A stretch of 64,000 nt of DNA, taken from positions 1 to 64,000 of the IMG/VR virus record IMGVR_UViG_3300030117_003378. One strand, written 5' to 3'. Numbering within the stretch: the first letter of the stretch is position 1; the number at the start of each line of letters is the position of its first letter. This stretch comes from a virus. This document shows, piece by piece, positions 27,779 through 62,829 of this stretch. The translations under genes were made by a program, and so were the position numbers. Under the pieces are notes generated by a model. That model had not been told where the DNA came from, did not search any database, and worked only from the letters and a program-made list of their open reading frames with translations.

Positions 27779-27921
27779 TTCAAATCCTCCGGTCCGTAGT
27801 GCGGTGCGTCAGGGCAATAATGAGGGTCATAAGGAAGAGGGTTCAATAGCATATCAGAAATAGTGTGAAGCATCAATAGCCCAAAACATAGACCACCAAT
27901 AACCCAACACGCGATGTCCAT
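27775..27921 (-). CDS. small membrane peptide (48 aa)
   Basis: Manual translation MDIACWVIGGLCFGLLMLHTI...; overlaps both neighbours. Confidence 0.45.
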   Translation of the reverse strand: MDIACWVIGGLCFGLLMLHTISDMLLNPLPYDPHYCPDAPHYGPEDLK

Positions 27922-29048
27922 TATTCATCCCTTGCCTTCATTTCTACATCAAGCCATTTGTCTTCCTTAATCATTTGCCCTTCTTCGTTAATCAAGTAAG
28001 CATAAATATCGTATGACCCATTTTCAAAATTACTTAGGAACACAGTTCGACTGTCCCAATCTTGGTAGGTTGTGTTGTAAGTATCAGTGGTGTAGTTGTA
28101 AGGTGCTTCTCCGTGACCGCTACCGTTGACGTATGCTAGGAATTGGATTGTGACTTCCTGTTCCTCGTCACACGAAATATCCACGTCATAAGTAAATTGT
28201 AATCCTGTTGTATTGTTATCGGTATAGCCCACATAGTAGTCGTAGTATTCCGGTTCACAATCCGGTTCAGGTTCAGGTTCAGGCTCGGGTTCAGGTTCGT
28301 CGTTCTGTAAGATAATAGCGGGGAATGTTTCATCATCCATCAGTTCTCCTTCGGGGTAGTACGCACGGATTCGCACAACCCATTCACCATCTTCTAAGTC
28401 ACTCCAATACTCTTCAACGTGTCCTGTATCACCGGGGTACTCTTCGGTATGTCGGTCGTATTCAGGTCTTTGTTCACCATCATGTTGTACTGCCCACCAT
28501 AATCCGATGTCGTCTTCAAAGTGACCTTCAACGACTAGATACATCTCCATCTTCATATCACCATCAGGCGTAAGGGATGACTCTATCTGTGTAATATCTA
28601 CGCTCGGTTCAACGTGGTGCGGATAGTCACAAGACCCATCATCCACCTCTGCCGTTTCATCGTAGTTTAGTGCGTTGTAATCTGTGCATCCCAAACGAGG
28701 TATATGTGGATAGTGGGGGTCATTATTATCTTGCCAAAACCATTCGTCGTCGTCACCATCACCTGCGGGTGTAACGTCGATAACACCACCGAGTTCCAAA
28801 CCGCTACCTGCAATAAGAACAAGGATTGGGATAATAGCAGTCAGGAGTTTCTGTAACTTCTGTGCGGTTTCTGTGGCCCGTTCGATAACGTCTTGAGTTT
28901 CACCGTTGGACTCAATAAGTCGTTCCGTGGAGCCAAGAAGGTGACTGTTGTTTAGCAGACCATCGTCCGCAAGGTCTTTGGCGATGTCTTCGTGACTACG
29001 ACCGGACGCCAAAGCACGTTTGATTGCTTCCTCATTACCATCACTCAT
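27921..29048 (-). CDS. acidic membrane-anchored surface-type protein
   Basis: One TM, GCTDYNALNYDETAEVDDGSC motif, EPEPEPEP linker, beta-rich acidic domains. Confidence 0.6.
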   Translation of the reverse strand: MSDGNEEAIKRALASGRSHEDIAKDLADDGLLNNSHLLGSTERLIESNGETQDVIERATETAQKLQKLLTAIIPILVLIAGSGLELGGVIDVTPAGDGDDDEWFWQDNNDPHYPHIPRLGCTDYNALNYDETAEVDDGSCDYPHHVEPSVDITQIESSLTPDGDMKMEMYLVVEGHFEDDIGLWWAVQHDGEQRPEYDRHTEEYPGDTGHVEEYWSDLEDGEWVVRIRAYYPEGELMDDETFPAIILQNDEPEPEPEPEPEPDCEPEYYDYYVGYTDNNTTGLQFTYDVDISCDEEQEVTIQFLAYVNGSGHGEAPYNYTTDTYNTTYQDWDSRTVFLSNFENGSYDIYAYLINEEGQMIKEDKWLDVEMKARDE

Positions 29049-30423
29049 TGCCACCACCCGAACTGTTATTCTCATTCTCATTCTTAGGCTTATCGGTTAC
29101 ATTATCCTCTTGTTCGTTCTGTCGAGGCATTTGTCCTTGGTCGGCATTTCCTTCAGACTTTCTTTCCTCTCCTTCTTTTCCGATAGACGGCATATCAAGA
29201 ATGTCAAGTGCTTGGTTTAGCGTAATAACACCAGAGTCGTAACCCATAGTAGCGCGACGCATCTTGTCGAATCGAGATTCATCTTCAATTGGGTGGAACA
29301 TAAGCCGTGGAATTTGTCGTGGCTCAACGCTAATTCCTTGTAAAGCAAGGTGTCGCATAAACAATTCTTGTATTCCTTGTTCTACTACGCCTTGCAGTCT
29401 TTTCATTGCTGATACTGACCACATATTTGCGTTGAAGGTTGCGGCAAACGTAGAACCGCGTTCCTGACCTGCCGCTACACGCGGGACGTTAAGAACCGCC
29501 GCAATATCGGCGTTCACACTGTCAAGGAACCCTGAGTTGTCAGGAATTGTATTCTTGAGGTCAACGTGGTGCATTTCAACATAGTGTGGAAGAATTGGGA
29601 TTTGGTCACCGCGTAGCCCACCGAGTAGCGAAGCGACTTCGTCCATAATGTACACAAGTCGGTCACGTTGTTCGTTAGGGTCTGTAATGTGTTCTACCGC
29701 ATCTGAACCAATCGTGATAAACTGCTTTGTCAAACTGTCTTCAAGCGCGGTTCTGTTGTTGATACTGTTGTACTTTGCGCGGATTGGTTGCTTTAGACTG
29801 CTGAATCGAGATGCGCCCCAAATACCGTAAGTCCACCGCAATTTCTTGTCCTTGTACCAATTGGAACGGTAGTCAATCTTAACGTGAAGGATTTCGTTTG
29901 CAGGGAATGTCATTGGGTCGCGTTTTTCTTCCCGCAGGATGTAATAATTTGCTTTCATAACGGGATTGTCTTTATCAGCCGCAAAGGGTGGCTTGCGCTC
30001 GTCAACAATAGTAATTTGTGAGATAGGTAGACTTTGTACCGCCGTGATACCGACACCGGCCTTACCGACTAATTTGTTTATGTCGTTTCCATATACCATC
30101 ATGTTACGCATAGCGTTGATAAGAACGTCGTCAAAGTCAATTGTATCAACGAGGTCACGAATACTGTTTCGGATTCGGGCATTTTTACCGGGGCGGTAGT
30201 CGATTTCCCAATTATTGGCCGTCAAACTCACGGAACGGACTGCACCGTTCAACTCGGGGTCAAATCGAACCATATCGTCGTAAAGGTCAAACACCGTATC
30301 GTAATGTGCGTCCTTTCGCATATCTTCTGTGTCGTCAACGATAGAAGGAATGCCTGTGGCCGCTTGGAAGGCATTTTTTGGTCTGTTTGTAGCAGTCGCA
30401 ACGCGATACTGTTTCTTGCTCAT
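29041..30423 (-). CDS. portal protein
   Basis: 460 aa after terminase; F...EILH.K, YG.WG.S, I.AVLNVP, GVITLN.A..IL motifs. Confidence 0.85.
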   Translation of the reverse strand: MSKKQYRVATATNRPKNAFQAATGIPSIVDDTEDMRKDAHYDTVFDLYDDMVRFDPELNGAVRSVSLTANNWEIDYRPGKNARIRNSIRDLVDTIDFDDVLINAMRNMMVYGNDINKLVGKAGVGITAVQSLPISQITIVDERKPPFAADKDNPVMKANYYILREEKRDPMTFPANEILHVKIDYRSNWYKDKKLRWTYGIWGASRFSSLKQPIRAKYNSINNRTALEDSLTKQFITIGSDAVEHITDPNEQRDRLVYIMDEVASLLGGLRGDQIPILPHYVEMHHVDLKNTIPDNSGFLDSVNADIAAVLNVPRVAAGQERGSTFAATFNANMWSVSAMKRLQGVVEQGIQELFMRHLALQGISVEPRQIPRLMFHPIEDESRFDKMRRATMGYDSGVITLNQALDILDMPSIGKEGEERKSEGNADQGQMPRQNEQEDNVTDKPKNENENNSSGGGNE

Positions 30424-33968: not shown

Positions 33969-34092
33969 GTGCGAAGGTTGCCCCAGTGAATATACAAGAT
34001 GGCCGGATTTATGGCAAAATCGCCGTTTTTGGGCTGGAATCGACGATTTTAGAGGTAGTCAAGTATATATGTAACCACTAACATGGGTCACC

Positions 34093-35034
34093 ATGGTGAC
34101 CCACCTGAGCCGGAATCGGAAGGCGATAGCCTCACGCGTAGCACTGTGTGACATGGTCGGATTTGGTGATATCGCCGAATTGAAGTACGAGGCCACAGAA
34201 TCAACTCAAGGCATGGGCCGGTTCAAAGAGTCCAACGGTGGACACCTAACCAAATTCGGCAAAGAGATGGTTCTAAGCATGGAACAGGCCGGATATGCTG
34301 GCAAGGGTATTAGTCGAGGCGGGTTCATCGTCGATGCCAGCGAAGAGGGATGGCAATACGCCGCCGATGTCCTAGGAGGTAACCCATGGCACCGATTAGA
34401 CGACGGGCAAGTTATCCAATACGGTGACATCAGACAAAGCGACAACCCATTGACTAACAACTACTACCACGTTCTACAAGGCGTATTCGATATGGCAGAG
34501 GGTGACCGTGACCTTGAGCGACTTATCGCCCTCCTTCATACAAAGGTCCGATTCAAGACCACATTTGACGAGGCACAAGGTAACTACGACACAGGCCCAA
34601 GCACCCGAACCCTATGGACAAAGGCACGTTCATGGGTTCAATTCATCCGTAAGAAGGAGAAGCAAGCCGGATTCATGCCCATTCTACTCAAGGACGCCGG
34701 ACATTATGACCGCATCAAGCACCTTATCGTCAAGCCGTCCGATGTTATTCACCTATCCGGCAAGCGTGCCGGAGATGTCAAGCAGTCATGGCTTGACGCA
34801 GTAAAGCGACGCCGTAAGAACGCGGACAGTCGCAACAACAAACGTTCAAACCGTAGCCGTTCCCGCCGCAAGACAGCGGGAGAGAAGGCTAAGCGGTCAG
34901 CCCGGAAGAACCGCCGGGGTGCTACGCGGGAAACCCCCACACAGCGTAGCGAGGCAGGACGCGCCTACGAAAGCGTCAGTGCAAAGCACAGCAGGGACAT
35001 TGCACCTGTGACCCGCAAGGGATTCACTAAGTAA
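34093..35034 (+). CDS. hypothetical protein with very basic C-terminal tail
   Basis: TATATA about 24 nt upstream (leaderless spacing); last ~75 aa are R/K-rich. Confidence 0.7.
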   Translation: MVTHLSRNRKAIASRVALCDMVGFGDIAELKYEATESTQGMGRFKESNGGHLTKFGKEMVLSMEQAGYAGKGISRGGFIVDASEEGWQYAADVLGGNPWHRLDDGQVIQYGDIRQSDNPLTNNYYHVLQGVFDMAEGDRDLERLIALLHTKVRFKTTFDEAQGNYDTGPSTRTLWTKARSWVQFIRKKEKQAGFMPILLKDAGHYDRIKHLIVKPSDVIHLSGKRAGDVKQSWLDAVKRRRKNADSRNNKRSNRSRSRRKTAGEKAKRSARKNRRGATRETPTQRSEAGRAYESVSAKHSRDIAPVTRKGFTK

Positions 35035-35037
35035 TGC

Positions 35038-35625
35038 TGGCTCCGCCTTCGGGCGTCGAGCAATTCCCTGACCCCCTAACAGGGGGTGGCCCTCAAAGGG
35101 CGACCCATTAGGCGGAGCCATGGACGGCGTAGCATACCGTTCCATTGTTCTGAACCGGTGGGTTGCAAAGGTACCTATGTCCCGGCTTGTGACCCCAAGC
35201 CCGACAGAGAGCCACCCCCGAATAGGATTCCAAGAAAGGACAGAATATCAGGGCCGAACACGGGCAACTGTGGTGAGGAAGAAAAAGGGGGTGGCTTGGC
35301 TTAACCTTATCAAGTCTCTCATTTCACCTTGACAGGAAACAGTTGCCGTGCGGCGATATAACCAAAAACTGTTTTCATTGTCTTGGTGGTGAGATAAAAT
35401 ACTGTGTGTTTATACCGTTAGAGTTTGGTTGCTTTCTCTATCCGACAAATACAGCAACAAATACACACAAGGCGCTATCCGTAGTCTGAGTAGTTAACAG
35501 ATTGCGAACAACGTAAGAGAGAGGTTGTGGGGTGACTCCCCTCTCCGCCTATCCGTAAATCAGCCGTAGCCGGTCACAAGCCCGGTTTAGAAATGATGAG
35601 TGCGGAAACCCGACCGAAGAGGGAT
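35038..35625 (+). ncRNA. putative large structured RNA A
   Basis: No convincing ORF; several 10-12 bp complementary pairs, including long-range and crossing ones. Confidence 0.5.
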
Positions 35626-35639
35626 AAGGAGTGAGAAAA

Positions 35640-36212
35640 ATGAATGGAACAGAAGCAGTCGTTCTGCTTTTCTTCATGGGCGTATTTGCCGTAACGGCAA
35701 AAATCGCACACGGAGTTAAGAAGGGCGATATTGTGATGGTGAAGCCAACGCTTTCCGCAATCGCGGAAGGTCTTGGTCTAAAGGTGGAAACGGAATATGA
35801 TGCGCCATATTGGTTGCAGATTGTCCACGCGCATGGGTTTGAAAAAGCCTTACGCGGCGTGGTCAATACGCTGAAACATGGTGGTCAACTTGTTGCAGAA
35901 GTAAACGTGTTTGCTTTGTACAACAAGGGAGTTCGTGAGATGAACGCAATACCGTGGAGAATTGGAAAAGAGTTGGCAAAACTCAACACGCAATTTGAGT
36001 GTGGTTGTACCGAAAAACTAGATGATGGTGTTGCGTCATGCACCGAGATATTGGAGATGGCAATTAAGTCGTTGGTTGAAGAACATTATCGGCACAATGC
36101 TTTAGCGCGGTTAAACAAATTCTATCTTGACCGCCTCGCTTCGGATGCTGAAATCGAAGCGGACAATGCCTCTCGATGGGGAACGCACATACCCGTTAAA
36201 GGTATGGATTGA
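35640..36212 (+). CDS. hypothetical protein with hydrophobic N-terminus
   Basis: GGAGTGA SD; 190 aa. Confidence 0.65.
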   Translation: MNGTEAVVLLFFMGVFAVTAKIAHGVKKGDIVMVKPTLSAIAEGLGLKVETEYDAPYWLQIVHAHGFEKALRGVVNTLKHGGQLVAEVNVFALYNKGVREMNAIPWRIGKELAKLNTQFECGCTEKLDDGVASCTEILEMAIKSLVEEHYRHNALARLNKFYLDRLASDAEIEADNASRWGTHIPVKGMD

Positions 36213-36820
36213 CCGGGCTTAGGCCCCGATTGTGAGTCCGGGGGGGTACATCCCCCTCGGCTCCGACGGGAAAGCCGAAAGGCAGGAGGTGAAAACTGAA
36301 ATGGCACAATTGTTAGTGAGACTTGAGTTCCCAAAAGAAGGATGCGTTTTTGAGGAATACAAAGTAGCATGAACACCACAGAACACGGAGACAGGGTGAG
36401 TCGGTACGTCCGGCCCCTGCTCCAAAGTGTCACTGTGACACTCGGTAAACCACAGTTAGCAAGTTGTAGCGTTAGTAAGCAAACGAGCAAAGGGTTGGAA
36501 TGACAGAGGTGCGCGGAAAGGCATTGCGCCGGACCCCTGCTGTCATAAACAACAAAGAAGCCATGTGATAACGGGACAGTCTGTAAGCATTAAAGAAGCG
36601 ATACCTGCCAAACATGAAGGATTAGACCTCCTATCATTGAGGTACAAAAAATCGCAATACGCAAGCAGATTGACACCCACACGATATGAAGGCGATAGCA
36701 CAAAGCGAACACAATACAACGAACTGACTGACATAACCGCATTAAAGGCATGAGGAGTTCGACGCCAGAGTTACTCATGGCCCACCATTTACCGGTGGGT
36801 ACTCGGATGGCGCAAAATAA
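36213..36820 (+). ncRNA. putative structured RNA/leader B
   Basis: Series of stem-loops, GCC-GAAA-GGC tetraloop, nested helices at 36560-36781. Confidence 0.45.
36301..36372 (+). CDS. 23-aa peptide MAQLLVRLEFPKEGCVFEEYKVA
   Basis: Perfect GGAGGTGA SD 8 nt upstream of the ATG. Confidence 0.45.
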   Translation: MAQLLVRLEFPKEGCVFEEYKVA

Positions 36821-36834
36821 CGGAGGTGACATTT

Positions 36835-39800
36835 ATGACAAACAACATGAATGTAACTAACGGTCTACGGGTCGTCTTCGTTGTCATGGCACTTGCTTTC
36901 GTTGGCCTCGCGGCTAGCGGAGCAGTTGTCACAGACAGCGCAGACACCCACGGGGTTGTAACAAACCCCACACACATGGGAGTCGGTGGAAACACTGACC
37001 ACATGGAGGTGCTTGAGTTGCACCATCGTCCGCGAAACAGCGCCCAACGTCGTCGTTGGCGTCTTGCCAAAACATCATGGCAACGTCGACGCGCTCGTTG
37101 GCTCTCGCTGAATAGCCTTCAGGCTTTGCGAGACGCATGGGACAAACTTGCCCCAAGAACACAGTTTAGAATTAAGCACGGCTTCGCCAAAGCAAAATTC
37201 GTGGGTGTTATTGGGCTGATGGCTATGATGACTTACTACGTCATCGGACTGCCATTGGCCTTCCTTGTGGGCAAAACCAACCGACGGTGGTACAAGCCCG
37301 GTGTCTATGTGGCGGCGGATTACCTCGTTGCAAAACTCAAATCCGATAAAGAGGATAGAGAACTTGTAGCGCAGGAAAAACGTCAACTGCATCGGGACAT
37401 GGATGAGGTTCAGGACGAGTTGAACATTGCGACTGAAGAACACGAAAAAGCGGTTGACCATCACCGTGAACTAGAATTGTTGCATAAGGACGACCCTGTA
37501 CTGTTTGGTGAGGACGAACTGAAGCAAGCAATTGCTGATGTAGAAGACACCAAGGAATGGGTCAACGAAGCCACTGAGTCATTGCAGTCTGTTCTCGACA
37601 GAGTGGAACAATTCTACTCTGTCAAGATTGATATGCGGCTTGGTAAGTACGGTGAGAATGTAGCCGAGAAATACGGCAGTAGGTTCGCTGAAGTTGACAC
37701 AAGTCTGTTGGAACTTAACCCTGACAACTGGACAGTTGCACCTGAGCATGAAGCAAAGGTTCTGAACATTAGCGACGAACCTAAAGATGGCTTGCGACAA
37801 ATGATGCGAACCAATCTACGGGAAGTGTCAAAGGAGTTTGGTGTGCAAACACCTGTGTTCCGCAACGGTCCGCGTTCGTACACCATCAAGGGCGACGGTT
37901 CAGTGCATGACTATGTCAGAGACGCTGACAGGTCAACCGATACGGTAGCACCCGATACCCGTGCCTATGGCTTTGAGACAAATTTCCCTGTCTCAAACCT
38001 AACTGCGATGATGCGTCACTTGGACATCTACTACACGGCGCAACAACGGTTCCATTGGCCCGGACACTCAAAGCCCGGACAACCGTCAATGATTGTTGAT
38101 GTAGAGTGTGGTTGGCACCTCCACATATCGGTTGCCGCTGGACTTGAGGGCGCGAAGGACAACATCAAAAGAATTCGCAAACTTGGTACTGGCAACGCAA
38201 CACACGATGTGTGGGTTGACTGGCAAGCCGCATTTACCATTAACTATCATGGTAACATTGAGCAGTTCAATGGGATGATGGGCAGAAGCCGCGACCACAA
38301 CAACAGTAACAACACTGGCTATGCGAAGCCTCAGTTTAGTCGTATCAACCATTTGCGTAAGGCAAAGGCACTGTACGAACTTGCGAAGCCTCGCGTGACA
38401 GAAACGGCGCAGGAAGCAAAAGACCGCTTCACTTCGCTCGCTGTTGAGTGGCGAAAGTTTGACGGACCCCATGCGGTTGGACACGAAACACTGGAACAAC
38501 TGGAAAAGTGGGACGGCGTGTCTGCCGTTCCTACGCGAGTTGCTAACCGGTTGCTTAAGAATGCTCGTAAGAAGTATCACGAAGCATTTTGGGCTATGGT
38601 CGACGAAGGTCGTAGCGACTACTGGATGGTTAACTTCGGTGGTTATACGGAACACGGCACAGTAGAGGTCAGACACATGGGCGGATTGAACAACTGGTTC
38701 ACTTCCTGCCTATGGATGATTACCATACAAAAGTTGATGATTGATTCAATGGATGGCAAAGAGTTCTTCATTGCATCACAACACAACAATGGTAGCCAAA
38801 AGGACCCACGCCGCGATGCGTCACAGGCACACGCCTTTGCACAATGGTTGTGTAACGGCTACGAGTGGCCGAAGCCGGTACAGGTTTTCTTGGATGTCTA
38901 CGGCATCACGGAATTCGCAAGTCTGAATGCGGACGCTGTCAACAAGAGTCACCTTGAAGGACAAAGTGTCTTTGTCGAGTCAATCTTGGCATTCAAGGAA
39001 TTTGACGATTGGCAACCATCTGCTGATTTCGTGGACATGAGCGACAAGCGATTAGCCAAGTGGCGACAAAAGTCGTATGCCATGATGGGTGAGACATACA
39101 TCGAACCCGGCAGTACCAACCCGTACAACGCAAGTCTGTTCGGTGTCGGCCTAATCGGTGCTATTGTCGCAGGTACGTCACCAGTGCTAATTGCGCTCGC
39201 GTGCGTAGCGTGTGGCATCGGCGGTTGGATTAACATGAACGTCGATGACGATGGCAAGCCGACAAAGCCAAGTCGTGGTGAGTGGAAGGGGATTCTCAGA
39301 ATCCTCGCCGAACTGTCCTCGCGTGGCTCAGAAGCCTGTGGTGTTGCTTACAGCAGAGGTGACGGTAAGGTACACGGTGCATGGGAAGTAGAACCCGAGT
39401 CCAAGAAGAAGGACAAGTGGGGCTACTACTCATCAGGTATCAACGTACCCAAGATGGTCGGCAGTCTGATTATGAAGAAGATTGCCAAGGGCCTCGGTCG
39501 AATGGGCTTCCGCATGAAGTGGGTTATGACGCACACCCGTCATAGCACAGGCGGTGCTAACAACCGACGCAATGCACATCCAATCAAGGTTGGACCGAAC
39601 GATAACCAAAATGCCGGTATAGTGCTAACGCACAACGGCATGATTTCGTTCAACGCAGAGCGCAAGGTCGAGGACACGCTACCCGAAGAATACTTCGTAT
39701 CGCGTAGCAAGGACATTCGTGGTCTTGAGTTAGATACACGTTGCATCGTGTACTGCTTGGACTACTATGGTTCGACCAACGACGGCATCGACAAGATGGC

Positions 39801-44584: not shown

Positions 44585-45023
44585 CGGCCATCTGTGAACA
44601 ATAAGGTTTATAGGGTAACCGGATATATGTTACCCACTAATTTTAGGGCGCGGATAGGTTTATAGTCTAACAATGTAAGGGATATTTACAGGAGAGGAAA
44701 GCATGGTTGAAAGATGTTGGTTTGATTCGCAGGGATTTGGGACTTGGGCTTGTCGCGTATGTGGGCGTCAAGTCATTCAAGACCCGATGGGTTACACTTA
44801 CTCATGTGAGGTGGGAGAATGAGAATGAAGAAGATACAAAACGCACTTTACGACATTCACGAATACGCAGACATTCTGCTCAAGAATAACAAGAGTCACA
44901 TTGCCGTTAATGAATTGGCTGAATTGATTTTGGAGAGAGTCGATTTCATTCGTTTGCACTTAGGGATTGATGAATAACCTTTATAGGGTAACAAGAATAG
45001 GATAATTTAGAGGAGAGGAAAAC

Positions 45024-48322: not shown

Positions 48323-49063
48323 GGGCGTATTGAGAGAATGGGCATTGGAGGAGATGGCCGCCGAAAAGGCGACCCTCCTCCGGCTCGTCTCCGCCATCAT
48401 TGACGGACAAGTAACGGTCATATCAGACACGCCGCACAACGAAGACCACAACGAAATGACATTGGTTTACCGGAGGGACAATTGATGCTCTGTTCAAACT
48501 GTGATATGTCATTCTTGTCGAAGGAGTGGTCGGTGCTGAGTATCAAGCGCAAGCCACAGTACGAGAAGGGAAGTGAAATCACACTTGCTTGCCCTAGTTG
48601 CGGGGCCATGTGGTCAGTGACAGGATATGCGGAGTGGACACTATGACGCATCCGTATTGTCGCATTTGTGGTGAGTACAGTCTCACCGAATTTAGCACCG
48701 ACTTCACATTTAGTGAAATCAAGTTCGGGGAACATTTTACTCACTACGTCAAGGTATGTAACTCTTGCATCAAGGAAGCGGTAAAGCAACGATTGGAGAT
48801 TCTTGGGAGAATCTAAAGGTTTATAGGGTAACAAGACTACGATAATTTACAGGAGAGATGAAAATGAGTTACAGAAACATGACAAGATTGGCTTGTTTTA
48901 TAGCAGACCGATATGTAGCAGAATATGACCGAGAGATGATTGGGGAATTGGTTCTCAAGTTCGGCGGAGAAGCCGTCGAGGACTTCTACGAAATATATGG
49001 CCGAATATACGGTGCAGATGTTCACCAAATCCTGAATTGGATTTACGAAATGGAGGATTGAAA

Positions 49064-49393: not shown

Positions 49394-50144
49394 ATATGAG
49401 GACGATGACAATAATTGATAGCGAGTTTGAAGATATGTTGGGTTACATCGAGTTTTTGGAAGACAAGTTTGGTAACCATTGGGAAGAGTTTGTACAAGCC
49501 GGACTATCGGTGCGGGAAGCATCTGACGAAGAAGCAAAGCATTGGGAGGAATGAATATGACAAAGGAAGGCACACATTATTTGGTTTTGAGCGTGAAGGA
49601 TTTGAGGGCGTTGCTTTCAATGGCGGAAAAGGGCGCAAGCCTAACCGAGTCGAAGATTGACACATGGACACCGGAAATGCACACTATCGTCATGCGGTTC
49701 AATGAAAACGCCAAGTACGAGGGACAATTGAATGCAATAACAGTGAATGATAAGACCATGAATGAAATACGCAGGGGCGATTTCTGAATATAAAGGTTTA
49801 TAGTGTAACAAGGGTAGCAAAATTTAGCGGAGGAATGAAAATGACAAGACAAACAATAAAGGTAAAGGTAAAGATAGAATTAGAAGAGGAGATGGAGATT
49901 AACGCGGAAAATTTACGCGATATGAGTATCGAAGAATATATCCACGAAAACTTTGAGTACGAGATTGGCGATATAGTTGACTACATCGAGCATTGGGTGG
50001 TCTGAATGGGTGAAAGGTTGATGATTTACTCAGCCGAGGAATTGCGCTCTAAGCCACTCAGTCAGGTCAAGCAATACGAGGCGTATTTGTGGGAGCAATG
50101 GCGTATCGCAGAAACGGTAAAGAAGTACATGGAGATGTTGTCCG

Positions 50145-58602: not shown

Positions 58603-58830
58603 ATGAGTAACTTTGTGACACAGGAAGAGTTTGCGGTCGTGGGTAACGCCACGTTGGAATTATTAAACAGAATGAAGATGGCGGAAGCGCGTTTAGCGAA
58701 TATCGAAAACGCCATCATTGAGTTAGGTAATACATTGACTATTGTTGCCAACCACCTTTCGTTGGTGTCCGATGTAACGATTGATTCAGGTGCGGTCGAG
58801 GCCGCACGTCAACGGAGGGAGAATCAATGA
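58603..58830 (+). CDS. small coiled-coil protein
   Basis: Promoter repeat plus GGAGG SD. Confidence 0.55.
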   Translation: MSNFVTQEEFAVVGNATLELLNRMKMAEARLANIENAIIELGNTLTIVANHLSLVSDVTIDSGAVEAARQRRENQ

Positions 58831-59756
58831 GTGTGATTTGGTGGGAGAAGCACCGGCCAAAGTGCTTCGATGATTTGGTCGGGCAGGACCACATTATCAA
58901 GCACTTCCGAGTAAAGAGTGTTGCCGAGGCGGAGGGGCGAGATACCGCCAATCTACAACACATGATTTTCCACAGTCAAGGTGCAGGGACAGGCAAGACT
59001 TCCCTCGCATATATCCTCGCTGAAAAATACAGGCTTCACCTTCAGATATTCAATGCGTCCACGCGAGAGCAACGGGGCATCGGCTTCGTTCAGGATGAAG
59101 TCATCCCACTCGCACAGTCGCACCCCAACGTCTTGATTCTTCTTGATGAGGCAGACCAACTGACGCCGGACGCACAGTCCGCGCTCAAGGGCGTCATCGA
59201 GGGTAGCGTGGCTACGTTCATTCTGACCTGCAACAACCTCAATAAGATTAGCCCGTGGCTTCAGTCACGGTGTCAAACCCATGTGTTCAATCCTATTACA
59301 CGGGACACTATGATTCAACAATTGATGAACATTGCGGCGGCAGAAAATCTTACGCTAAACTCAAGGGCTGATTTCGGGGTCATAGCAAAGGCACATGAGG
59401 GCGACCTGCGTAGCGCCATCGGTGCATTGCAGACAGTGGCACTTCTTGAGGGCAAATCCCGAGAGCGATTCATCCGGTCGTTACAAGACCCCGAATTTGA
59501 CGCCAACAAATTCCTAAGACTCACATTCAAGGAGCGAGCATTCGACGAGGCTATGGCTATGACTAAGCCTCTCGACCCCCTCACTCTCATCAACGTCGTG
59601 TTCAAGCACGGCACTAATTCTCCCGCAAGTCCACAGGCAAAACTACGCCTGATTGACGCCGCAATCACGTCACGACGTGACCTGATTATGGGTGTCGAGG
59701 ATGTATTTGTACGGCACAACTTTGTTCGCCTTCTGTGCGAACCGGAGGATTTATAG
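58827..59756 (+). CDS. rfcS: replication factor C (clamp loader) small subunit
   Basis: W.EKHRP..FDDLVGQ, G.GKTS, NAS..RGI, LDEAD, Q.AL, LQSRC, GDLR.AI. Confidence 0.95.
   Translation: MSVIWWEKHRPKCFDDLVGQDHIIKHFRVKSVAEAEGRDTANLQHMIFHSQGAGTGKTSLAYILAEKYRLHLQIFNASTREQRGIGFVQDEVIPLAQSHPNVLILLDEADQLTPDAQSALKGVIEGSVATFILTCNNLNKISPWLQSRCQTHVFNPITRDTMIQQLMNIAAAENLTLNSRADFGVIAKAHEGDLRSAIGALQTVALLEGKSRERFIRSLQDPEFDANKFLRLTFKERAFDEAMAMTKPLDPLTLINVVFKHGTNSPASPQAKLRLIDAAITSRRDLIMGVEDVFVRHNFVRLLCEPEDL

Positions 59757-61017: not shown

Positions 61018-62829
<1,812 letters not shown>

Follow-up and report, generated by a model that had tools for sequence, protein, structure and literature searches.

The window analysed here was the first 64 kb (64,000 nucleotides) of the 73.8-kb IMG/VR virus record IMGVR_UViG_3300030117_003378, and the element in question was a gene-free gap on its + strand (35035-35639), between a gene for a 313-aa protein (34093-35034) and a gene for a 190-aa protein that begins at ATG 35640. 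A segment of 55 nt towards the 3' end of this gap (35552-35606, + strand) belonged, by sequence and structure, to a known class of self-cleaving RNA, the twister ribozymes, in the type-P1 form that lacks stem P3. It is probable that the gap is an inter-cistronic spacer within a long + strand operon, running from approximately 34093 to beyond 41 kb, and that the twister is its catalytic part; self-cleavage would most likely split the long operon transcript at U35556^A35557, 83 nt ahead of the next gene. A preliminary description had interpreted almost the same interval (35038-35625) as a candidate for a new, large structured RNA of about 590 nt. Its observations held, in that the gap was real, non-coding and base-paired, with the sequence features where they had been placed, but the spacer is probably a patchwork of RNA modules and not a single new large RNA.

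When the 64 kb was compared with all Rfam families, RF03160 was the sole match below E = 0.5, scoring 46.8 bits (E = 1.5e-9 for the region; E = 3e-7 for 64 kb against all families). The alignment spanned the full model apart from 16 deleted positions, which belonged to the optional stem P3. The check with Infernal against Rfam that had been proposed therefore did recover a ribozyme, though solely below the gathering score, and there were zero matches in the window at gathering thresholds. The parts of the ribozyme were as follows.

35552-55/35603-06, + strand: P1, UCCG/CGGA
U35556^A35557, + strand: predicted cut (U^AA, A35558 next), 83 nt before ATG 35640
35559-62/35594-97, + strand: P2, AUCA/UGAU
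After P2, + strand: GCC, then linker GUA
G35563 C35564 with G35580 C35581, + strand: pseudoknot T1, GC of L2 with the L4 GC of AAGC
35570-73/35582-85, + strand: P4, reading GCCGG-UCACAAGC-CCGG with its loop
C35575 A35576 C35577 with G35600 U35601 G35602, + strand: pseudoknot T2, L4 with the 3' strand of L1
Between P4 and P2', + strand: junction of 8 nt, UUUAGAAA
3' strand of L1, + strand: GAGUG
G35598, + strand: catalytic G at the base of P2

The RNA began and ended in P1, its stems followed one another as P1-P2-P4-P2'-P1', and their mean pair probability was 0.95. The conserved core was complete, including G35598, A35557 immediately 3' of the cut, and A35558; catalytic roles belong to the guanine at the P2 base and the adenine after the scissile bond, which are G45 and A7 in Oryza sativa numbering (PMC6154101). 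The window departed from the consensus twister in two sets of pairs, and both departures were compensated. The middle pair of T2 was A-U (CAC/GUG) rather than C-G (CCC/GGG), a double change also present in at least 59 environmental examples, while P2 was AUCA/UGAU rather than the common UGCA/UGCA, such that two pairs differed. The missing stem is not unusual, since P3 is present in 78% of twisters and absent in about 22%, and the crystallised O. sativa form has no P0, P3 or P5; nor is P1 needed for cleavage (PMC6154101). Indeed, the closest known structure is the O. sativa Osa-1-4 twister (PDB 4OJI; RF03160 type P1, PMC6154101), which shares with the window the lack of P0, P3 and P5 and the same order of P1, U^AA, P2, GCC, 3-nt linker, P4 with 8-nt loop, A-rich junction, P2', GAGNG and P1'. 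Both pseudoknots are possible in each RNA, and in each the catalytic G lies at the P2 base and an A follows the cut. The window differs from this known form in its 8-nt junction as well as in the P2 and T2 pairs just described. The 3' end of the ribozyme was 33 nt from ATG 35640, and the leader between them (35607-35639, + strand) contained a Shine-Dalgarno sequence, AAGGAG, at 35626-35631, 8 nt before the ATG.

Independent evidence for the assignment was provided by other P3-less twisters. A scan with the pattern GCCNNNGCCGGTCACAAGCCCGG yielded 104 metagenome and 28 genome stretches, among which were 59 distinct, complete examples, and a covariance model (R1) was made from 55 of these unrelated twisters, none of which belonged to the lineage of the window. 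The sole R1 match in the window and in the 73.8-kb genome was at 35550-35608 (68.1 bits, E = 7e-16). Among the CAC-type twisters the L1 partner was U (i.e., GAGUG) in 59 of 59 sequences, though the filter allowed any base, and the T1 positions were GC/GC in all 55 comparison sequences. P1, which was not required by the filter, was paired in 77% of cells, as against 14-41% in slid controls, with changes on both sides at all four pairs; its commonest length was 3-4 bp. Most comparison twisters preceded small genes of phages or prophages, with 8-36 nt separating them from the Shine-Dalgarno sequence and start codon, and the window has the same layout. The genes included those for HTH regulators, AbrB-like proteins and FtsK-like ATPases. 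At several unrelated loci (e.g., L134:3653-3712 and L006:2021-2080), the P1 3' strand was itself the Shine-Dalgarno sequence of the next gene, as GAGUG-CGGGAGGUGAGG-N-AUG; in such cases, cleavage and loss of the short P1 5' strand would expose the ribosome-binding site.

Several other candidates were considered and set aside. A twister-like word, CCCAAGCCCG, was present at 35195-35204, but a second twister was ruled out, both here and in the - strand neighbourhood. Hammerhead, HDV-like, pistol, hatchet and twister-sister ribozymes were absent from both spacers of this cassette at E up to 10, and the second spacer (36213-36825) produced no Rfam match at all at E up to 5. At 35589-35628 there was weak similarity to sR32, a C/D-box sRNA of archaea (17.5 bits against a threshold of 40; E = 0.01-0.04), but this match lacks a D box and overlaps both the ribozyme and the Shine-Dalgarno sequence. 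Neither tRNA nor tmRNA was found by ARAGORN, and the 'cloverleaf' at 35038-35120 was rejected as a tRNA, its loops being 3 nt and not tRNA-like.

The non-coding status of the gap was evident from comparison with a relative, L002, whose indels of 4, 5, 12 and 4 nt disrupted every frame; open reading frames on the + strand were just 48-72 aa and none had a usable ribosome-binding site. Folding was better than chance when compared with dinucleotide shuffles (z = -4.24 on the + strand, -4.9 in a repeat run, and -3.62 on the - strand), and six other coding pieces of the window used as controls gave z between -0.9 and +1.8. A functional and structured RNA region, one including a ribozyme, is what was found, as had been suggested among other options, though its catalytic part proved to be of a known class.

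The individual helices of that description fared less well. Of the five quoted, three were perfect complements, namely TGGCTCCGCCT/AGGCGGAGCCA (35038-48/35110-20), GGCTTGTGACC/GGTCACAAGCC (35184-94/35572-82) and AGCCACCCCC/GGGGGTGGCT (35210-19/35287-96), while 35259-71/35339-50 and 35403-11/35459-69 each required one bulge. In the nearest-neighbour ensemble of the whole stretch these helices had pair probabilities of 0.00-0.03, compared with 0.95 for the twister stems. An RNAalifold prediction from five sequences contained 177 pairs, of which one was compensatory, and its covariation term was unfavourable; the long-range helices thus gained nothing from covariation, although relatives were few and power was low, and the sequence set is too shallow to fix any global architecture. 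The pseudoknot formed by 35259-71/35339-50 crossing 35210-19/35287-96 was contradicted by L002, where the 3' arm is identical but the 5' arm, which lies within an insert, has been replaced; a local pairing (35335-44/35367-76) is also available to the 3' arm. The closing helix, spanning about 390 nt (35184-94/35572-82), is mutually exclusive with an active ribozyme because its second arm is the P4 3' strand and L4 of the twister, and it was absent from the most diverged relative. The helix 35038-48/35110-20 was invariant in close relatives, and so uninformative, and its 3' arm was missing from L046. For the helices that remained, there was one compensatory pair, one change compatible with G-U pairing, and a confinement of indels to loops, but comparative support was thin.

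The relatives were identified by BLAST of the window against all fetched loci, which returned five true ones (L002, L004, L073, L096 and L046). The first four hold the whole gap. The fifth, L046, shares 35400-35789 at 85-99% identity, along with sequences 1.4 kb upstream and downstream, but nothing of the gap before 35400 except a 22-nt hairpin. Instead, the upstream gene and 35035-35399 were replaced in L046 by a gene for a 332-aa protein (27% identical, with a basic tail) and an unrelated, hairpin-rich spacer of 595 nt (z = -5.4), which includes a GAAA-capped stem. The spacer therefore appears to comprise two modules that were inherited independently, with a break at about 35400, which speaks against a single RNA class of about 590 nt. 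Module A (35038-35399), of about 360 nt, is a conserved, hairpin-rich spacer that accompanies the orphan gene with the Arg-rich tail. It contained the following elements.

35038-35120, + strand: hairpin cluster immediately following the stop codon; two hairpins inside an outer helix of 11 bp (35038-48/35110-20)
35070-35087, + strand: first inner hairpin, 7 bp, loop AAC
35089-35101, + strand: second inner hairpin, 5 bp, loop CAA
35040-35061, + strand: UNCG hairpin, GCUC-CGCC-UUCG-GGCG-UC-GAGC
35184-35194, + strand: segment GGCUUGUGACC, exact complement of the twister P4 3' strand and L4 (35572-35582)
35210-19/35287-96, + strand: 10-bp stem capping a variable insert of 67 nt
35297-35399, + strand: nearly invariant block, 96-100% identical in four relatives, ending where L046 homology starts
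35335-44/35367-76, + strand: local hairpin of 10 bp within the invariant block

The second inner hairpin provided the only compensatory change found, GCCCU/AGGGC having become GCCCC/GGGGC in L002. The UNCG hairpin, which competes with the 11-bp outer helix, was the only piece of module A to be kept in the L046 spacer, as GCUCCGCC-UNCG-GGCG-UY-GAGC after the stop codon (22 nt, 91% identity, E = 7e-4). The L046 version has the loop UCCG and the bulge UU; that the loop still conforms to UNCG points to selection acting on the RNA. The stem at 35210-19/35287-96 is supported because C35219U in L002 retains the pair as G-U, and because the insert that it caps (within 35210-35296) was replaced there by a shorter, different sequence. 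Altogether, the signals of an RNA-level function were UNCG and GNRA loops, the compensatory pair, the G-U-compatible change and the loop-confined indels, together with the RNA-library contigs described below. Elsewhere in module A, a direct repeat, GGGGGUGGC, was observed at 35078-35090 and 35283-35295, and each copy is a possible partner for GCCACCCCC (35210-35219). As the first copy additionally forms a hairpin of its own with ACCCCCU, three mutually exclusive pairings result, which could constitute a conformational switch.

Module B (35400-35639) comprised the ribozyme, its leader and a 5' part with further hairpins.

35400-35550, + strand: 5' part of module B
35403-35469, + strand: hairpin UGUGUGU.../...ACACACA; position 35461 is a 25-nt hairpin insertion site in each of the five relatives
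35469-73/35546-50, + strand: AGGCG/CGCCU, closing a three-hairpin domain

The repeat CTATCCGTA was found at 35475 and 35549, as previously described, and the shorter motif CUAUCCG occurred three times in module B (35438, 35475 and 35549). Across the genome, CTATCCGTA was present in 5 copies on the + strand (35475, 35549, 50767, 52182 and 60952; 0.2 expected) and none on the - strand, while CTATCCG had 12 copies on the + strand (3.5 expected) and 4 on the - strand (4.1 expected), three of the + strand copies lying within 35438-35555. The last of these three provides the P1 5' strand and the cut site of the twister; the 50767 copy adjoins a TATA-like promoter.

Variation among the four close relatives was mosaic, with L096 matching L002 at 34890-34919 and 35504-35528 but matching the window at 35210-35296, and this implies frequent recombination. 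The downstream gene was mosaic or swapped, its nucleotide match among relatives ranging between 2 and 77% while the leader was conserved. Homology in this gene breaks just past the conserved leader and the first codons. In L046 and L073 the gene has an N-terminus resembling that of the window and a C-terminus resembling that of L002 (compared at L002:3020-3475 and L046:11345-11788).

On this evidence, the transcribed ribozyme would fold through P1, P2 and P4 together with pseudoknots T1 and T2, and G35598 and A35557 would catalyse the attack of the U35556 2'-OH on the neighbouring phosphate. The upstream product would then consist of gene 34093-35034 with about 520 nt of hairpins, terminating in a 2',3'-cyclic phosphate. 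The downstream message would begin with a 5'-OH and would retain nearly the whole ribozyme as a cap-like 5' structure, within an 83-nt leader having an exposed Shine-Dalgarno sequence. In this way the stability and translation of adjacent genes could be uncoupled without host nucleases. The most likely role for module A would be as a 3' stabiliser or a protein-binding platform for the upstream product, and its segment at 35184-94 could pair with the ribozyme core, slowing cleavage. The leader, being conserved between variable neighbours, would also double as a homology patch for the exchange of genes between related viruses.

Various points weigh against this interpretation. The Rfam score of 46.8 bits is lower than the gathering threshold of 67.2, a shortfall that arises because P3 (16 model positions) is deleted; the threshold is a curation cut-off rather than a structural criterion. 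The ribozyme is 100% identical in the five relatives, and this identity leaves zero covariation within the lineage. Further, the 23-nt pattern used to fetch the comparison set was derived from the window, so that part of the match at its 20 specified core bases is built in, whereas GAGUG, the junction and the flanking stems were not imposed by it. Strong folding was not peculiar to the gap, because two coding pieces of the neighbouring ORF1235 (37000-37605 and 38500-39105) reached z = -3.7 and -4.1, and the second gene-free spacer (36213-36825) matched the gap in fold strength (z = -4.2). The z-score alone is therefore non-specific, and strong folding is a trait of the whole cassette. (ORF1235 encodes a 1235-aa, amidoligase/amidotransferase-like protein.) Where module A is concerned, its high identity may reflect recent recombination instead of selection; in L004, an identical block already begins at 34943, within the upstream gene, and extends to 35302. 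Two marine metatranscriptome runs contained contigs corresponding to 35122-35291, 35262-35553 and 36468-36801, but assembled contigs from RNA libraries cannot prove transcription or show RNA ends, nor, where none were seen for the flanking genes, can they demonstrate absence. Finally, the effect on message stability presupposes how the presumed archaeal host treats a 5'-OH end.

The alternative that survives best, though unlikely, is that a single non-coding RNA of about 520 nt (35035-35556) is the functional unit, perhaps with the upstream protein attached to it through the Arg-rich tail, and that the twister serves to make its precise 3' end. A type-P1 twister would suit this task, as just five ribozyme nucleotides are left on the upstream product, and two of the RNA-library contigs (35122-35291 and 35262-35553) lie within this interval, the latter stopping 3 nt short of the predicted cut. 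Conservation and UNCG loops also speak for this alternative, as do long-range complements to what follows (35155-64/35607-17 and 35184-94/35572-82), and the L046-type virus has an analogous combination of a basic-tail gene with a long, hairpin-rich spacer (z = -5.4). The same virus, however, replaced everything before 35400 while keeping module B, sharing the 22-nt hairpin alone with module A; the pseudoknot arm is missing in L002, and compensation at one pair of the 177 predicted, with an unfavourable covariation term, does not favour one conserved fold. Such an RNA would also have no defined 5' end. A promoter-like sequence in the gap, TTTTCA-17-TAAAAT (35372-35400), scored at chance level and was missing from L046, and was rejected as an internal promoter on both counts. 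Neither a terminator-like site nor a T5 run was observed on the + strand of the gap.

One of the RNA-library contigs had an unusual structure. In run X19, a contig extended along 35262-35553 and then returned to 35362-35434, creating a 192-nt back-joint (CTATCC|CAAAAAC) that falls 2-3 nt short of the predicted cut, on its 5' side; the alleles of the two copies differ. Ligation of a ribozyme product was rejected as the cause, given the distance of 2-3 nt between joint and cut, and inspection of the sequence at the back-joint ends revealed no bulge-helix-bulge splice motif. Because the copies differ in their alleles, a tandem duplication in a relative, or a chimera of two strains, is favoured over circular RNA. 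The contig from the second spacer (36468-36801) displayed a similar back-joint, from about 36826 to 36691.

A different elaboration, which is decidedly improbable, concerns the complement to the ribozyme core in module A. Here 35181-35194 would pair with P4/L4 and hold the twister off until released, effectively a built-in anti-ribozyme; under this reading, the trigger might be the upstream protein binding through its Arg-rich tail, or a refolding among the three mutually exclusive pairings of GGGGGUGGC/GCCACCCCC. Of dinucleotide shuffles, 0.3% produced an exact complement of 11 nt linking the twister to the 517 nt ahead of it (P about 0.003); the complement extends to 14 nt with one mismatch (35181-94/35572-85), and it is kept in L002, L004, L073 and L096. 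Conversely, neither L046 nor the 550 nt preceding 58 other twisters contained it, forcing the helix costs 7 kcal/mol (pair probability 0.001, compared with 0.95 for the twister stems), and 35184-35194 also pairs locally with 35197-35202 as a hairpin. This complement is the one feature that could make the case more than an ordinary twister, and, if the anti-ribozyme were true, operon processing in a virus of marine archaea would be under the control of a natural twister whose activity is conditional, in a domain from which twisters are not known to have been described.

It is very improbable that the gap acts at the DNA level, as a recombination linker, an origin or a packaging-related site, with its RNA structures being incidental. 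Gene swaps directly beside a conserved spacer and mosaic variants are in favour of such a site, the - strand folds nearly as well as the + strand (z = -3.6), CTATCCGTA is enriched on one strand (5 copies against 0.2 expected), and the RNA-library contig from 35553 to 35362 has a joint like that of a tandem duplication, with alleles differing between the copies. But there is no DNA-level rationale for a full twister with compensated pseudoknot and stems; moreover, a UNCG loop stays UNCG, C35219U is tolerated solely as a G-U pair in + strand RNA, and the cumulative GC-skew minimum falls near 31-33 kb, away from the gap. Least credible of all is that the twister-like segment is an inactive relic or chance look-alike in an unusually long untranslated spacer, for although its score is under the Rfam gathering threshold, its P1 has just 4 bp and it is invariant among five relatives, the match has E = 3e-7 when the entire window is compared with every family, each conserved position is there (including G35598 and A35557), both deviations from consensus are compensated, it is 100% identical in relatives whose flanking leader and genes diverge, and a P1 of 3-4 bp is the commonest in the comparison set.

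The genes on either side of this spacer were as follows.

34093-35034, + strand: upstream gene, 313 aa, Arg/Lys-rich C-terminal tail
35640-36212, + strand: downstream gene, 190 aa, hydrophobic N-terminus, starting at ATG 35640

The upstream protein belonged to no Pfam or PHROG family, its relatives formed two to three clusters among 5.8 and 1.8 billion proteins, and its AlphaFold model had a pLDDT of 33. In the preliminary description the tail had been put forward as a possible partner of the RNA, an idea for which the basic-tailed L046 homologue (27% identical), itself followed by a different hairpin-rich spacer, still leaves room. The ATG of the gene stands 26 nt downstream of a TATATAT box (34064-34070), ahead of which a T10 run closes the preceding gene, and the transcript is probably leaderless. 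No matches were returned by single-protein scans of viral contigs with both flanking proteins, and a phage collection produced no nucleotide match to the window and no match to ORF 27921-29081.

The carrier is fairly likely to be a magrovirus-like marine tailed virus, and so a virus of archaea. The sequence was present in marine metagenomes from ten studies. An RFC-type clamp-loader ATPase (RCF1-5 lid), GroEL and a family B DNA polymerase are encoded (window 58827-59756 and 61240-62829; genome 66349-67335), as is a tape-measure protein, and matches to the large terminase subunit, at about 23% identity, include viruses of Natrialba and Halobacterium alongside others. MCM was not detected in the carrier genome. 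Magroviruses, which are associated with Marine Group II archaea, are marine and have a halovirus-like morphogenetic module, their own replication genes (PolB, RFC) and a chaperonin in the replicative cluster (PMC5434244). TATA-like boxes 26 nt before start codons and T-run ends were seen. A repeat of about 45 nt, AAGGTTTATAGGGTAACAAG..AATTTACAGGAGG..ATG, stands ahead of many + strand genes between 41793 and 58576 (e.g., 44977-45022, 48817-48862 and 49794-49839), with none in the 34-41 kb cassette; these motifs have the look of archaeal BRE/TATA promoters followed by a short leader or by none. The virus itself has no RtcB gene. To our knowledge, such archaeal hosts all carry RtcB-type ligases, which act on exactly the ends made by twisters.

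The arrangement had several precedents. Bacterial twisters are often found among virus genes, and for twisters and hammerheads between the genes of phages and prophages, the processing of polycistronic transcripts has been proposed (PMC6765202). Like those ribozymes, the present one is inter-cistronic, on the coding strand and tens of nt before the next ribosome-binding site, with variable flanking genes; unlike them, it follows about 520 nt of conserved hairpins that include an 11-nt complement to its core, where the other loci examined have just a short hairpin. It differs from the Osa-1-4 type of twister also in its apparently magrovirus-like carrier and probably archaeal host. With GOLLD, ROOL, HEARO and OLE, which are large, phage-associated RNAs, the spacer has in common its length (several hundred nt), its abundance of hairpins, its occurrence in a virus and its representation in environmental RNA libraries, but it has no Rfam match to them at E up to 10, no conserved multi-domain architecture, and modules that were separately inherited. 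In T4-type phages, promoter-stem-loop 'mobile regulatory cassettes' flank swappable genes. The spacer resembles these in that conserved non-coding joints lie beside mosaic or non-homologous genes, with recombination end-points at the joints. It differs in that the predicted joint is an RNA-processing element, its promoter-like site being at chance level.

What appeared to be a new large RNA therefore resolves into a known ribozyme plus conserved hairpins that are as yet unexplained, and a false novelty is removed. Since P3-less twisters score under the Rfam gathering cut-off, they are overlooked by routine annotation; a single pattern scan yielded at least 59 complete variants with the A-U pair in T2, most of them directly before the ribosome-binding sites of phage genes. 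We found no paper linking twister ribozymes to archaeal viruses, and if the carrier is a magrovirus, the range of twisters would extend to these. Conserved ribozyme leaders beside swapped genes fit the idea of a cassette joint, which would give the long-standing question of the purpose of twisters in bacteria and phages an answer that can be tested.

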